DNA of 59,799 bases from Deltaproteobacteria bacterium (GCA_025361065.1 JANYAY010000032.1:1-59799), one strand, 5' to 3'; positions 32,602 through 56,360 are shown, counted from the stretch's first letter. The notes: generated from the sequence alone by a model not told the origin. Translations and numbers: made by a program.

Positions 32602-34506
32602 ATGGGATTGATATGGATTAATAATGTTTCGGTAAGCTTCGGCGGACCGCCCCTGTTATCTTCCGCCACACTCCAGATCGAAGCCGGCGAAAGAATAGGA
32701 CTTCTGGGCCGGAATGGTTCCGGCAAATCAACTCTGATGAAAATGCTGAACGGCAATATCGTTCCGGACACAGGCGAAATAATAAAAAGTGCTAACGTCC
32801 GCATAAGCCTGCTCCCCCAGGATGTCCCGGATGGTCTATCGGGCACAGTCTATGACATAGTGGCCGCAGGTGGCAGTAAACATCTGGAGCTGCTCAAAGT
32901 TTATCACGATCTCACCGCGGAAATTCAGCGTAAAAGCGATGATGGTTTGCTCAAGAAACTCGCAAACATTCAGCATCAGTTGGAAGTATCCGGAGCCTGG
33001 AATTACCATCTGCAAGTCGCGGGGATCATCAGCCGGACCGGTCTTAATGAAAATGCCGAATTTCGGAACCTATCTGCCGGAATGAAACGTCGTGTTTTTA
33101 TGGCCCGGGCGCTGGTTTGTGAACCAGACCTTCTCCTGCTCGATGAACCCACCAACCATCTGGATATCAATGCCATACTCTGGCTGGAGGATTTTCTGCA
33201 AAATTATGATAAAGCCATCATTTTTGTAACCCATGACCGCGCGTTTCTTCAAAGATTGGCCATGCGCATCGTAGAGATTGATCGGGGCAAATTGATATCC
33301 TTTGCCTGTAATTACCGCGCATATCTCGAACGCCGGCGGGGAATGCTGGAGTCGGAAGAAAAACAATGGCATGATTTTGATAAAAAGCTGGCCAAAGAAG
33401 AAACCTGGGTCCGGCAGGGTGTCAAGGCGAGGCGGACCCGAAACGAAGGCAGAGTCAGGGCTCTCAAGCAGATGCGCGAGGAACGTGCCCGCAGGCAGAC
33501 GCAGACGGGCGTGGCGCGCCTGGCAATTCAGGAGGCCGAAAGAGGCGGCAGGATGGTTGTAGAGGCGGAAAATATCAGCTTCGCTTACGGAAATAAAAAA
33601 ATTATTGAAGCATTTTCCACCGTGATCATCCGCGGCGATAAGGTAGGCATTATCGGCCCCAATGGCTGCGGTAAAACCACTCTCCTTAAAATTCTCCTGA
33701 ACGAACTTGAACCCCAGCAGGGCCGCATCCGCCTGGGAACGGGAATACAGATTGCCTATTTCGATCAGCTTCGGGCTCAACTTGATGAAAACAAAACACT
33801 TAGGGATAATATTGCCTCTGGCAACGACACTATCTTCATCGACGGATTCCCCCGGCATATTGTTGGTTATCTCCAGGATTTTCTCTTCCCTCCGGCGCAG
33901 ATAATGGCGCAGGTCAAATCCCTTTCCGGCGGAGAACGTAACCGGTTGCTGCTGGCCAAACTTTTCAGTATACCTTCCAATGTACTGGTGATGGACGAAC
34001 CTACAAACGACCTGGACGCCGAAACGCTGGAACTGCTAGAAGACCGGCTCTTGGAATATAACGGCACAATCCTGCTTGTCAGCCATGACCGGGCGTTTCT
34101 CAACAACGTGGTAACCTCCACAATAGTCTTTGAAGGCGAAGGACAACTGCAGGAATATGTAGGCGGATATGATGACTGGCAAGCTCAGCGCATTGCGCGA
34201 GTTGAACCGGAGAGCGCAATGCCAAGAGAAGCAAAGCCCAAAAGAGAAAAGCTTCCTGCGGAGAAACGCAAACTCTCTTTTAAAGAGACGCGTGAACTCC
34301 AGGAACTGCCACAGAAAATAGGATTTCTGGAAGAGGAAAAACAACAGTTAACCGCTGATTTAAACTCGCCCGCGTTCTATGCGAAAAACGATGCCGTCAA
34401 AATCAAAGCGACCAGCGACAGGATGACTTGCCTGGATGCGGAACTCGACTGTGCCTATCAACGCTGGAATGAATTGGAAGACCTGGCGGCACAGCTGGGC
34501 AGGTAG
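32602..34506 (+). CDS. uup: ABC-F ATPase Uup
   Basis: Two ABC domains (GRNGSGKS, GPNGCGKT), KARRTRNEGRVRAL linker, C-terminal coiled coil KLSFKE.REL. Confidence 0.95.
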   Translation: MGLIWINNVSVSFGGPPLLSSATLQIEAGERIGLLGRNGSGKSTLMKMLNGNIVPDTGEIIKSANVRISLLPQDVPDGLSGTVYDIVAAGGSKHLELLKVYHDLTAEIQRKSDDGLLKKLANIQHQLEVSGAWNYHLQVAGIISRTGLNENAEFRNLSAGMKRRVFMARALVCEPDLLLLDEPTNHLDINAILWLEDFLQNYDKAIIFVTHDRAFLQRLAMRIVEIDRGKLISFACNYRAYLERRRGMLESEEKQWHDFDKKLAKEETWVRQGVKARRTRNEGRVRALKQMREERARRQTQTGVARLAIQEAERGGRMVVEAENISFAYGNKKIIEAFSTVIIRGDKVGIIGPNGCGKTTLLKILLNELEPQQGRIRLGTGIQIAYFDQLRAQLDENKTLRDNIASGNDTIFIDGFPRHIVGYLQDFLFPPAQIMAQVKSLSGGERNRLLLAKLFSIPSNVLVMDEPTNDLDAETLELLEDRLLEYNGTILLVSHDRAFLNNVVTSTIVFEGEGQLQEYVGGYDDWQAQRIARVEPESAMPREAKPKREKLPAEKRKLSFKETRELQELPQKIGFLEEEKQQLTADLNSPAFYAKNDAVKIKATSDRMTCLDAELDCAYQRWNELEDLAAQLGR

Positions 34507-34533
34507 AAATGATATGCTTGCATAATCTATATT

Positions 34534-34645
34534 ATTCCATTTTCAAATAGCCTGAAGGTCACGCGTCAATCGCTACCTTTGTTGGCGGCAAAGCCCGGCG
34601 CATGCCCGGGTCTTCGCCGTATCATCGATGCTTTGGAAATGTAAT
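34534..34645. mobile_element. MITE-like element
   Basis: Terminal inverted repeats ATTCCATTTTCAAA / TTTGGAAATGTAAT (12 of 14 match); internal palindromes; no ORF. Confidence 0.65.
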
Positions 34646-35817
34646 TATATCTGCGCATGACTAAAACATGTATTAACTATTGCTTCACTTTTTACAGAAT
34701 CTTTAAGAATCAGGCCAATAAAATCCAAATAAGGCGAGACTATTAGATCTGAAGGGAAGACAATACCGCTATATTGTGATTTGGGAGTTAAAAGGATTCC
34801 AGCCTCCCTGAAAGCCTGGTTAACCAATTCGCTACAAAAATATTTTGATCTTCTTGTTCTTATGAAATTTGGTACCAAGGCATAGCCTGATTTGAATATA
34901 TTAATAATTTTGCTTATTAGATAAGAGATAAATACTCCTACTAATTTTAAATCAGAAAATCCCGACTTAACCTTTACGCACTCAACCATCTTTTTTAATA
35001 ACAGCTTTATCTGAGAATGGCCCATTCTTGGTCTAAGGACAATTAATATTTCGCCAGGAAGAATCTTAAAATCTCTTAAATGCACTCCGTCTGATCCTCG
35101 TTCCATATGAGCATCCATCATCCTGACATCAGAAGGTGATACCTTTGCCGCCATTAAAACATGTGTAATTTGCGAACTTGTAACGGTACTGATTATTCTG
35201 GAAATCAGACCTTCTTTAAAATGCCCTTTAACCTTGTATCGAAATAATATGTCTCCAGTGTCTATTTCATTTTTATTAATTACATATCTTTTTAGATCTC
35301 CATATTCCTTCACAAGATTTTCTTCAATTTGTACCCTGCCTTGAATATCAGAAACCAGGACATTAATCTCTTTTGCGTATTGTAAATTTAAATTGAATTC
35401 ATCTCTGATTAAATGAAAAATTTCTTGATGTTCTCTCGGTTCCCCTGCAATTTCAATACTTGTTAAGTTTCTTATAATTCGATTAATGCTTTGTTTCATT
35501 AATCTGTTTTTTTTGATTGCGTTATAGACAAACCTTTTTGCCAATCTACGGTATTTTTTTTGGGATAAACAATTCGAATGTTCTAGCTCGTTATAATATT
35601 CTTCAATGCATTTCAGGAGTTCATCCGTCTTTTTATATAGATTATGTAATCTTTGTATTAAATACAAGGATTTGTCTTTTCTTGCTTTGCCCAATGTATA
35701 ACCAAAAACAATGCGTCTCACTATTGGAGAGAAAATATATAATGCTAACGATTCGATGTTTTTTTCAATTATCGTAGCTTCTACACTTAATTTTTTACTC
35801 GTTTCTAATGAATTCAT
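34645..35817 (-). CDS. Hypothetical protein with C-terminal permuted papain-like NlpC/P60 (YiiX/YebB-like) domain
   Basis: GDILF...ISTVTSSQITHV (His) ... YFCSELV (Cys) ... VFPSDL; helical N-terminal half; visibly AT-rich. Confidence 0.75.
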   Translation of the reverse strand: MNSLETSKKLSVEATIIEKNIESLALYIFSPIVRRIVFGYTLGKARKDKSLYLIQRLHNLYKKTDELLKCIEEYYNELEHSNCLSQKKYRRLAKRFVYNAIKKNRLMKQSINRIIRNLTSIEIAGEPREHQEIFHLIRDEFNLNLQYAKEINVLVSDIQGRVQIEENLVKEYGDLKRYVINKNEIDTGDILFRYKVKGHFKEGLISRIISTVTSSQITHVLMAAKVSPSDVRMMDAHMERGSDGVHLRDFKILPGEILIVLRPRMGHSQIKLLLKKMVECVKVKSGFSDLKLVGVFISYLISKIINIFKSGYALVPNFIRTRRSKYFCSELVNQAFREAGILLTPKSQYSGIVFPSDLIVSPYLDFIGLILKDSVKSEAIVNTCFSHAQI

Positions 35818-36102
35818 AATCCACCCCTGATATCACCTGAATCAGATTAAAAAAGCCTTCCTTCCTGTTGGCTATAAATTAATCTAAGTAATGGAAATAT
35901 GATACAGACAGACACTAATGGATGCTGAAGGAATTTGATGCTAAAGGATGCTAAGATTTGCTGATGGAAAATTGGCCTGTAAATATTTATCACTTGAAAG
36001 GCAGAATTGCTTATTGGCTCTGCCTTTCTTATGTGACCATTTGTCCAATAGATGCTAAAGGTAGGAAATGCTATATGTTGCTAATAGAAAATCAAAAAAA
36101 TG

Positions 36103-36822
36103 TTATTCATGTGTGGTTTGAAATTGCAGCAATTCAGCGGTCGGTATAAGAATCTTACAGCCGGCCTTAACCTGTTTGAATTTGATGCGATTCTCCATTG
36201 TCCATCGCCAGACGGTATACCAGTGGACGCCGAGTCTCTTGGCAGCCTCCTTAACGGTTAAGAATTCCTTGCTTGCGATCTCCTCACGCTGATTTTTGAC
36301 GGCCGACTTAAACTTCTCTAACGGAAAAGTCCCTTCTATATCCATTTGTTCAAGGGATTTGTAAAACTGCAAACCAGTGCTGTGACGTTTAGAATGAGGG
36401 ATATGTCCCGACCAGACAACTTTACCGGCCAGCCTTATCTTATCCTTGGTCTTGGTAGGAACAAAATATAATTCTAAATCGCTGTTGGTGGAACTTTTGA
36501 TCAGGGATTCGACTTGAGCCCCCCAAGCACTAATATCTACCATGACTGTATCGTTAACCGACTCACCATTTATTTCGCTTACCTTAAAAAAAACATCATA
36601 ACGTTTAGATGTTCTATGATCGCTGGTTTCCTGGTCCCGTTTTTTATCTTTCATGGAAGACAAGGTTTGGATGGCGGCATCTAATTCTTCCGCGGTAAAC
36701 TTGAATCCTTCCTTCCGCAGCAATGTCCTCCTCTCATCGTCAGAAGTGCACTTCGCCGCGTCTTTCAAGAATTTCTGGTCTTCCTGAATCCGCTGTAAGA
36801 ACTCAAAAGCGTCTTTCATCAT
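36103..36822 (-). CDS. Nif11-like leader / PilZ / excisionase-type HTH fusion protein (239 aa)
   Basis: FLQRIQEDQKF...EGFKFTAEEL (Nif11-like); RTSKR...DISAWG (PilZ); FLTVKEAAKRLGVHWYTVWRW (HTH_17); own promoter and RBS. Confidence 0.8.
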   Translation of the reverse strand: MMKDAFEFLQRIQEDQKFLKDAAKCTSDDERRTLLRKEGFKFTAEELDAAIQTLSSMKDKKRDQETSDHRTSKRYDVFFKVSEINGESVNDTVMVDISAWGAQVESLIKSSTNSDLELYFVPTKTKDKIRLAGKVVWSGHIPHSKRHSTGLQFYKSLEQMDIEGTFPLEKFKSAVKNQREEIASKEFLTVKEAAKRLGVHWYTVWRWTMENRIKFKQVKAGCKILIPTAELLQFQTTHE

Positions 36823-36853
36823 TTTTGATAAGACCTTCCTTTTTGTGTAGTGA

Positions 36854-36882
36854 AGTATAAGAAACGCCGTCATGTATGTCAA
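36854..36882 (-). promoter_or_regulatory. Sigma70 promoter of the Nif11-PilZ-HTH gene
   Basis: TTGACA-N17-TATACT, then AGGAAGG RBS before ATG 36822. Confidence 0.8.
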
Positions 36883-36910
36883 GGGAATCTTGAACCAATC
36901 TGATAAGAAC

Positions 36911-37168
36911 AAGCTGCCACCGGAGAAACGCAAGCTTTCTTTTAAAGAGGCGCGGGAGCTCCGGGAGTTGCCGCAGAAAATAGGTTTTCTGGAAGAGAAA
37001 CGGCAGCAGTTAACCGCCGCATTAAACTCCCCCGCGTGCTGTGCGAAAAACGCTGCCGTGAAAATCAAAGCAGCCAGCGACAGGATGACTTGCCTGGAAA
37101 CAGAACTGGACTGTGCCCAGCAATGCTGGCAGGAATTGGAAGACCTGGCAGCAAGGCCGGGCAGGTAA
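36911..37168 (+). pseudogene. Duplicated, displaced 3' end of uup (258 bp, direct repeat of 34249-34506)
   Basis: KLPPEKRKLSFKEARELRELPQKIGFLEE...WQELEDLAARPGR aligns without gaps to the Uup C-terminus. Confidence 0.92.
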
Positions 37169-37234
37169 AAAGATTCCCCCTGATTAAAATTCTGCGCTCC
37201 GATCGAAGCTTTCAGCTTTCGTAAGTTCGACAAC

Positions 37235-55082: not shown

Positions 55083-56360
55083 ATGCCAACCAAAAGAAAA
55101 ATGAAAAATAAACAGCAAGGTAATGATAAACTGATTAAGAAATATGAATCCTTTATTCACGGTTTCCGGGATGTTATTCTTTTCATCCGCCATAGTGACG
55201 GGAAAATATTGGAGGCAAATACTGCTGCCTTAAAAGCTTATCAATACTCCCGTGATGAATTAGTCACCAAAACAATTTTTGATCTGCGGTCACCGGAAAC
55301 GCGTAAACAAATCATGCCTCAGATGGATGCCGCCGCTATTTCCGGTCTTTTGCTGGAAACAGTCCATATCAGGAAAAATGGCACAAGGTTTCCGGTGGAA
55401 GTCAATTCTCAGGGTATCACCATTGGTGAAGAAACTATAATTTTGAGCGTTGTTCGCGATATTTCCGAGCGAAAAATCGCTGAGCAATTACTGCAGGAAA
55501 GCGAGAATAATCTGCGTGCTCTACTTAATGCAGTAACTGAATCTTTCTATCTTATGAATAAAGACGGCGTTATTCTCGCCGCCAATGAAACCATGGCCCG
55601 GAGATATGGACTCGCCCTTGAGACCTTGGTGGGAAGCTGCATTTATGATCTGGTGACACCGGATATAGCCGGTCAAAGGAGGGCTCAGGCTAACCTGGTT
55701 ATCGAGAGCGGCAAACCGGTACGTTTCGAAGATATGCGTTTCAAGCGAAATATCGATCAGGTCCTCTACCCTGTTTTCAACAGCAATGGACGGGTCGTGC
55801 GCATCGCTGTCTTTGGCATTGATCTTACCGACCGGCGGAAAATGGAACACGATCTGGAAACCATGGCCTTTACCGATCAGCTCACCGGCATTTATAACAG
55901 GAGAGGGTTTATCAATCTTGCAGAGCGCCAACTTAAATTTTCTAAACGTTCGAAACAAAGAATGCTGCTTTTTTTTGCCGATATAGATAAAATGAAATGG
56001 ATAAACGATAACTTTGGCCACGAAGATGGCGACAGAGCACTGATCAATACGGCCAGAATTCTCGTTAAAACTTTTCGTGAATCTGATATTGTTTCGCGTG
56101 TAGGAGGTGATGAATTTGCTATTCTGGCTATTGACGCTGAAGACAAAACAGCAGAAGGCCTGCTGGACCGGCTAAACAAACTAATTCATAGCAGCAATTC
56201 ACGCAAGGGCCGGAAATACGATCTTTCCATCAGTATCGGTTATGCGGTATTTGATCCCCACCATCCCGACTCTCTTGATGAACTGATGTCCCGCGCCGAC
56301 ATGCATATGTATAAGCAAAAGAAAGCAAAAAGCAGGCGCAGGCGCCGAGAACACGAATAG
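55083..56360 (+). CDS. PAS-PAS diguanylate cyclase
   Basis: Two PAS domains; intact GGDEF with RESD I-site. Confidence 0.93.
   Translation: MPTKRKMKNKQQGNDKLIKKYESFIHGFRDVILFIRHSDGKILEANTAALKAYQYSRDELVTKTIFDLRSPETRKQIMPQMDAAAISGLLLETVHIRKNGTRFPVEVNSQGITIGEETIILSVVRDISERKIAEQLLQESENNLRALLNAVTESFYLMNKDGVILAANETMARRYGLALETLVGSCIYDLVTPDIAGQRRAQANLVIESGKPVRFEDMRFKRNIDQVLYPVFNSNGRVVRIAVFGIDLTDRRKMEHDLETMAFTDQLTGIYNRRGFINLAERQLKFSKRSKQRMLLFFADIDKMKWINDNFGHEDGDRALINTARILVKTFRESDIVSRVGGDEFAILAIDAEDKTAEGLLDRLNKLIHSSNSRKGRKYDLSISIGYAVFDPHHPDSLDELMSRADMHMYKQKKAKSRRRRREHE

Follow-up and report, generated by a model that had tools for sequence, protein, structure and literature searches.

Within the window, by which is meant the whole stretch of deltaproteobacterial DNA that was analysed (59,799 nucleotides), the ORF of 239 aa that an earlier reading made from the sequence alone had proposed was confirmed; it runs from 36822 to 36103 on the minus strand. 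The plus strand of the same interval (36103-36822) contains six stops. The genes and features of the locus are as follows:

36854..36882, minus strand: sigma70-type near-consensus promoter of the regulator gene, a member of a dispersed promoter-leader element
36103..36822, minus strand: regulator gene P0001, 239 aa, Nif11 - linker - PilZ - helix - BldC/Xis-like winged HTH
36682..36813, minus strand: Nif11-like four-helix domain, aa 4-47, without a Gly-Gly leader end and with a near-invariant Cys25
36352..36618, minus strand: PilZ domain, aa 69-157, with R70xxxR74, D96xS98xxG101 and G150xxF153
36115..36264, minus strand: HTH_17 / excisionase-type winged HTH, aa 187-236, the best-conserved part
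36053..36084, minus strand: repeat array 1, three TAGCA units at a spacing of 10 then 16, directly past the stop codon
35994..36027, minus strand: hairpin between the arrays, candidate terminator of the regulator transcript (z -6.3; no clear U-tract)
35913..35964, minus strand: repeat array 2, the predicted operator, with units that start at 35964, 35954, 35944, 35928 and 35918
35876..35904, minus strand: downstream promoter, assigned by position (-35 TATCAT, degenerate; 17-nt spacer; -10 TAATTT)
34645..35817, minus strand: cargo gene P0052, 390 aa, with a C-terminal permuted papain-like (YaeF/YiiX, C92-like) domain below curated cut-offs
34249..34509, plus strand: 3' end of uup (ABC-F), intact gene, left copy of a duplication, 261 bp
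36911..37171, plus strand: second copy of the uup 3' end, right cassette boundary, 84% identical, more diverged

Both expression signals named in the sequence-only reading were identified. A near-consensus promoter, TTGACA-17-TATACT (11/12 match), lies at 36882-36854, 32-60 nt upstream of the ORF, and a AAGGAAGG element is located 11 nt upstream of the first ATG as the RBS. As the promoter scan returned five sites against 8.4 in shuffles, this promoter stands on its own score and on its conservation in the related locus L025. The promoter-leader element of which it forms part (TTGACAT...TTTCYTATA...AAAAGxAAxxTCTTATCAA; window 36825-36893, minus strand) was found at approximately 14 more places in the host genome G000 (contigs C147, C130, C5, C32, C175, C114, C95, C124, C123, C80, C71 and C20), in front of unrelated genes, one of which resembles rubrerythrin by eye, and possibly represents the regulon of some unknown factor. 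Contigs of close relatives were also present in four wetland/peat metatranscriptomes, two spanning nearly all of the regulator gene, and were set aside as evidence because strand, starts and level are not readable from contigs.

All three domains that had been claimed for the protein scored above their Pfam cut-offs, namely Nif11 (PF07862, aa 4-47, 32.5 bits against 23.8), PilZ (PF07238, aa 69-157, 28.1 bits against 22.5) and a MerR/excisionase-like HTH (HTH_17, aa 187-236, 35.7 bits against 27). The NCBIfam models for Nif11 (TIGR03798, 35.4 against 32.3) and excisionase (TIGR01764, 37.9 against 28.8) were also passed. The two PilZ motifs read from the window recur among the aligned homologs, with RxxxR in 48/49 and D/NxSxxG in 49/49; these are described as the c-di-GMP receptor motifs of PilZ proteins (PMC7288161). 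Mean pairwise identity among the 49 aligned proteins was 82% for the HTH, 63% for Nif11, 62% for PilZ and 29% for the linker. Two cysteines are conserved: Cys25 of the Nif11 domain in 48/49 fused proteins, and Cys222, situated in the wing of the HTH, in 49/49. Position 222 being invariant in the fusions and Gly in most stand-alone HTH relatives suggests a role for Cys222 that is tied to the fused form.

An AlphaFold2 model, which the sequence-only reading had proposed, matched the PilZ and winged-HTH folds, with moderate quality for the protein as a whole (pLDDT 70, pTM 0.56). Comparison of the model to PilZ-type chains gave Z scores of 6.8-8.4, the top ten VIA-align rows including VCA0042, MotI, YcgR and BcsA/CeSA, and the best Foldseek E-value for the PilZ fold was 0.014. 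The C-terminal segment (aa 184-238) matched Pukovnik Xis (Z 6.6, 2.6 A, 53 aligned of 54 residues) and DNA-bound BldC in the BldC-whiI structure (Z 6.0, 2.8 A, 52 aligned of 52), Z scores of 6-6.6 being middling on the tool's own scale with the domain covered whole; further fold matches of these 55 residues were to Tn916 Xis, RdfS and RacA. No significant match of the HTH to BldC was found by sequence, and sequence searches against solved structures gave no meaningful match. The Nif11 domain folded alone gave four confident helices (pLDDT 91). Structure searches with this fold gave no significant match (best Z 3.4, best Foldseek E 1.5; the weak rows include the borosin precursor SonA), and an ESM Atlas search with aa 1-62 returned no match. 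PADLOC reported nothing but a weak mad1 HTH match.

Of 271 candidates from a word-seeded search, 50 were homologs; their identity is 46-94%, almost all are approximately 240 aa long, and the named records are deltaproteobacterial (Thermodesulfobacteriota, Desulfobaccales). Locus searches gave 17 genome loci and 48 metagenome loci, among them stand-alone relatives of 60-73 aa made of the same HTH. Occurrence is patchy, at 3/13 genomes of the host genus, 10/69 of family f33 and 3/401 of the phylum sample. An unfiltered profile search revealed related architectures, namely REC-Nif11-PilZ(-HTH), Nif11-PilZ alone, tandem Nif11 repeats and a permuted HTH_17-Nif11-PilZ. The permuted form (P0058; L148:1501-2202, L149, L150, L151) carries a different HTH with both PilZ motifs intact and is full length in 4/69 f33 genomes; no TTAGCA array was seen within 260 nt either side of its genes. 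As it is joined to excisionase-type HTHs in two orders, Nif11-PilZ behaves as a portable unit. Among 860 candidates, none was a longer fused form (420-2000 aa), which is weak evidence. Proteins P0066, P0105 and P0120 consist of two or three tandem Nif11 domains with a Pro-rich linker and a conserved GG(R)RRG(M/I)xW tail. The three-domain combination is not known to have been described, and a literature search confined largely to open-access journals found neither the fusion nor the operator described.

On reading the DNA by eye, tandem TTTAGCATCC-like repeats were found past the stop codon of the window's gene and of its relatives, both fused and stand-alone-HTH, with the consensus (C/T)TTAGCA(T/A) and a 10-bp period. 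Dereplication of the 62 sequences that extend 200 nt or more downstream left 40 loci. At 20 of these, two TYAGYA units exactly 10 bp apart occurred within 400 nt downstream, the strict pair not being found at the other 20; the reverse strand gave no such locus, and 200 dinucleotide shuffles gave a mean of 0.03 and a maximum of 1. This enrichment test is post hoc, since the motif was first defined by eye on the same loci. The commonest pair spacing was 10 (26 pairs), followed by 20 (7) and 26 (5). As the distance from stop codon to array varies from 3 to approximately 370 nt, the register of the array is set by the promoter and not by the gene end. Neither array nor riboswitch was found downstream in a well-supported five-row clade (L017, L018, L020, L047, L048) with a nearly identical recognition helix, and 2/3 of its genomes that were checked lacked any match to the tandem pattern. 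In L011, L012 and L015, arrays also precede the gene, in L015 together with a degraded HTH copy ahead of the intact one (L015:8001-9010); given these upstream arrays, the regulator may have been placed under the control of its own operator following a tandem duplication.

A genome-wide regulon in the host was rejected: in its genome, tandem pairs at a spacing of 10 (7) were no commoner than at other spacings (3-7), and a weight-matrix scan ranked the regulator's own locus first (30.4, 19.7) with one weak further match. The strict tandem pattern, which the window's own array does not fit, gave four matches in 401 phylum genomes against one for a control pattern; one of the four lies beside an HTH, and the other three look like chance, HTH and riboswitch being absent nearby. 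Operators elsewhere in genomes with an array-less regulator were likewise discounted, as 2/5 genomes had a match and only one of these a promoter and riboswitch.

Downstream of the array, a putative promoter and, in many relatives, a riboswitch were identified. At 28 riboswitch-bearing loci, motif starts lay at -14 from the best -35 hexamer in 21, at -24 in 14 and at -34 in 4, and at many loci a further, degenerate unit begins at -4 and overlaps the hexamer. The -35 hexamer behind the array is mostly TTTACA, TTGCCA or TATACA, with the -10 mostly 17-18 nt on. Members of the Rfam c-di-GMP-I clan (RF01051 / RF03167) were found above gathering score, downstream and on the same strand, at 15/20 and 12/16 loci, a sample of 36 of the 65 loci that was picked partly because the pattern had already been seen. 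Most of these aptamers score highest against the 'GGC' variant model. The bases at the equivalents of G20, A47 and C92 do not vary among the aptamers (26/26), where A47 and the column mapping follow the Rfam structure line and Vc2 numbering. The c-di-GMP contacts are reported to be G20 and C92, with cGAMP switches having an A in place of G20 (PMC6140456). In 3/3 folded examples the terminator hairpin uses the aptamer 3' strand, and from this competition the downstream riboswitch is predicted to be an ON switch. The genes that follow vary by clade and include a polysaccharide deacetylase with SGNH or GH9 enzymes, PEP-CTERM proteins, receiver-domain and LuxR proteins, and a chemoreceptor with an HD_5-domain protein and CheX.

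Riboswitches of this kind are abundant in family f33, with 221 pattern matches in 50/69 genomes, and a c-di-GMP-I subtype (GCCAAA...CGGAAAGC) is strongly expanded there, at up to 22 per genome and often in tandem; tandem riboswitches are treated in PMC9481103. A control set of 30 loci from among the matches listed held 34 riboswitch matches, two of these 34 looking like chance in coding DNA. The repeat motif was found 50-105 nt upstream of the riboswitch at 27/28 HTH-linked loci and at 1/34 controls. In the one exception (L133:1390-1600), array, promoter and riboswitch follow the last codons of an HTH remnant, and an intact HTH without an array is encoded on another contig of that genome, making it possible that the L133 array is served in trans by this distant HTH. 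With the exception left out, TTGAC was present in the promoter of 22/33 control riboswitches and 0/28 HTH-linked ones, although the linked promoters are not independent counts, as all may descend from one ancestor. A combined operator-plus--35 pattern was found in 3/69 f33 genomes, each time within approximately 100 bp of an HTH match, and in 0 of 59 f33 genomes without the HTH; this search is independent on its negative side alone, since some of the genomes hold the loci that defined the motif and kin share ancestry.

In the window itself, no riboswitch was found (0 Rfam matches), the single match of the host genome being on another contig. Array 2 is the best-scoring array of the genome, and the region that the sequence-only reading had put forward for EMSA (35820-36100) contains these conserved repeat arrays, on which it had not remarked. 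The -35 position of the downstream promoter matches TTGACA at 1/6, and as this position is degenerate the promoter would be weak and may be decaying. The cargo product P0052 scores 15.1 against 27 bits with PF05708 and E 0.0019 with NF008552, and its Atlas feature value was 0.92, with recognition just sub-threshold. The regulator and cargo pair is present at a different locus in two congeners (G001, G012), and a papain-like gene was seen beside the regulator only in L008, L009, L025, L050 and the window. One congener (L009:8884-10057) carries a frameshift in the cargo gene. A papain-like paralog of this gene, 67% identical, is located elsewhere in the host genome (G000 C41:15865-17034), and the 500 nt preceding it contain no array.

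The cassette is flanked by the two copies of the uup 3' end. A 98-aa ORF with a match to ABC_tran_CTD survives in the right copy, and in several congeners uup is joined directly to the next gene. The greater divergence of the right copy indicates that the duplication is an old event. A REP-like short sequence lies between uup and the cargo gene (window 34566-34620) and recurs at approximately 10 places in the genome. The host genome has 15 GGDEF matches; one gene for a GGDEF domain is encoded in the same window (55866-56336, plus strand), 19 kb off. Among the stand-alone HTH relatives, one lies 27 bp ahead of a tyrosine integrase in a phage-like region without an array (L063:4725-5479), a hint that the HTH family was derived from a real excisionase.

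Taken together, these observations are best explained, at a probability of roughly 0.5, by P0001 being a c-di-GMP-gated activator of the BldC/Xis type that is predicted to bind the 10-bp repeats and to switch on the weak promoter abutting them. By analogy with BldC, the HTH would very probably bind the repeats head-to-tail with one protomer per helical turn, and the resulting coat would reach the -35 box and recruit or position polymerase at a non-consensus promoter. The PilZ domain would, with good probability, bind c-di-GMP and control either assembly or the contact with polymerase. Activation is the likely outcome, given that the -35 boxes depart from consensus and have the array on their upstream side. 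The Nif11 bundle might, more tentatively, serve as a self-association or coupling module that travels with PilZ, and not as a leader; structured Nif11-type leaders have been modelled to engage enzymes via a hydrophobic core (PMC12537861). The link to c-di-GMP gains independent support from the c-di-GMP-I riboswitch matches downstream in relatives. At riboswitch-bearing loci, c-di-GMP would be sensed at two steps, once when transcription initiates and again at the terminator. For stand-alone HTH relatives, which would act on the same promoter, the riboswitch would be the only sensor; in the clade of the window, where the riboswitch is missing, the protein would be the sole sensor and would control the permuted papain-like gene.

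The degenerate unit at -4 would also suit a repressor, the filament of which spreads over the -35 box and is released or tightened by c-di-GMP, and BldC provides a precedent, as it protects -50 to -80 of whiI, yet a bldC mutant transcribes whiI earlier (PMC5859096). Repression is nevertheless considered unlikely, given that TTGAC is missing from every linked promoter and that the well-conserved units lie upstream of the -35 and not between -35 and +1. Another reading would keep the HTH on the array and leave sensing to the riboswitch, with PilZ binding another dinucleotide (3',3'-cGAMP) or a partner protein. The stand-alone HTHs, which retain array, promoter and riboswitch without a PilZ domain, would fit this, as would the PilZ score of just 5.6 bits over its cut-off and the REC-fused forms, which suggest other inputs; the near invariance of both PilZ motifs over 48-94% identity, their retention in the permuted family and the G20-type base of the riboswitches, in place of the A of a cGAMP switch, make it decidedly unlikely. 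The TIGR01764 match, the Xis and RdfS folds and the integrase beside the L063 relative could instead mark an excisionase or recombination directionality factor, for which the repeats would be attachment-arm sites of a small mobile cassette, one that is bracketed by the uup duplication and present in 3/13 genus genomes at two or more loci. We regard this as very unlikely, since that integrase is the only one among 42 scanned neighbour ORFs (many loci being short) and belongs to an array-less locus, since copies 84% identical do not form a fresh att pair, and since the register of the array is fixed to promoter and riboswitch. The position of the array, always on the coding strand and near the stop codon, would be expected if the repeats acted as RNA in the regulator 3' UTR (read-through or antitermination) and not as DNA; a 10-bp period equal to one DNA turn, a distance fixed to the -35 and not to the stop codon, and the arrays upstream of the gene in three loci render this highly improbable.

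A further alternative to an activator gated by c-di-GMP is a true RiPP-type precursor, the Nif11 leader of which would bring in a maturase or be removed by the papain-like protein encoded next to it. The N-terminal domain resembles the Nif11-derived peptides (N11P, TIGR03798 / PF07862) in passing both profiles and in forming a long helical bundle, the databases name the homologs Nif11-like precursor, a papain-like gene is next in the window's clade, and two C39 peptidase matches are present on other contigs of the genome. N11P leaders are described as ending in Gly-Gly, followed by a low-complexity core (PMC2887384), and stand-alone Nif11 peptides in the same alignment end in an ELxDxxLxxVxGG-type motif, whereas GG, GA or AG was found in 1/49 linkers of the fused proteins. 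Here the domain is fused, also in permuted order, to folded signalling domains; what follows it is an 18-aa Lys/Ser/Leu/Glu-rich linker and then PilZ, not a short Cys/Gly/Ser-rich core. The papain-like neighbour was seen only at the five loci named above, and no maturase or transporter was found among 42 neighbour ORFs scanned of 130 listed, just as the sequence-only reading had seen no RiPP enzymes in the window, none being apparent by eye among the ORFs listed for 26000-47000. A precursor role is therefore hardly tenable, and the database naming of these proteins as RiPP precursors is taken to be a mis-annotation. The proposal of the sequence-only reading that a Nif11 leader fold has been repurposed on a second-messenger-controlled regulator is supported by the missing Gly-Gly end and by the recurrence of Nif11-PilZ with another HTH in the opposite order.

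Beyond the activator itself, a broader reading, which we hold to be rather doubtful, would see a self-contained c-di-GMP coincidence cassette in which a BldC-type filament is ligand-gated by Nif11-PilZ at a dedicated promoter followed by an ON-riboswitch. Nif11-PilZ would have been grafted onto excisionase-type HTHs twice in opposite orders, the cassette would be portable before surface and signalling genes, and Nif11, beyond its use as a RiPP leader, would be a domain for oligomerisation or signal coupling in general. Proteins like BldC are widespread and are called effector-less in the founding paper (PMC5859096); a PilZ-gated member with a sharp operator would, if true, show how a second messenger can control DNA filaments of this type. 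As operator, promoter and riboswitch are all short and can be transferred, the model is testable in a laboratory host, and the protein would offer a tractable case of a Nif11 domain working outside peptide biosynthesis.

Comparison to known systems places the P0001 model with Streptomyces BldC (HTH_17, PDB 6AMK), Pukovnik Xis (4J2N) and RdfS (8DGL), with which it has the winged-HTH fold in common. The wHTH of BldC alone binds direct repeats head-to-tail (PMC5859096) and BldC can activate or repress (PMC6428758); RdfS acts in a like manner and activates promoters (PMC11963761), and head-to-tail polymerisation on such repeats is a property of Xis as well. The apparent cognate site here is likewise a directional direct repeat of approximately one helical turn per unit. 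BldC is described as a wHTH alone without an effector domain (PMC5859096), whereas P0001 is fused to Nif11 and PilZ, so that a strict definition of the class (wHTH only) covers the stand-alone relatives, which match BldC in size, and not P0001. The repeats also differ, being AATTXXXX(C) for BldC and TTAGCA-based here, and in place of the genome-wide regulon of BldC there is essentially a single array in each genome, next to the HTH gene. Klebsiella MrkH is similarly a PilZ activator that binds c-di-GMP and DNA (PMC7288161), and the PilZ model matches it at Z 5.8 (5EJL), but MrkH resembles YcgR and is reported to contact DNA through PilZ as its binding motif (PMC7288161), in contrast to the separate wHTH predicted here. 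Pseudomonas BrlR is a MerR-related HTH regulator with a DNA affinity raised by c-di-GMP (PMC7288161); it differs in binding c-di-GMP at the HTH region, in having a coiled coil and a GyrI-like domain, and in the absence of PilZ and Nif11. The riboswitches of the relatives agree with the c-di-GMP-I (GEMM-I) class in passing gathering scores and in keeping the G20/A47/C92-equivalent bases, and differ in that their promoter is preceded by a repeat array and regulator gene and that they are missing from the window's clade. The regulator would thus be of the BldC/Xis type with a PilZ input, a member of PilZ and HTH_17 by profile, with an architecture that is absent from MrkH and BrlR.
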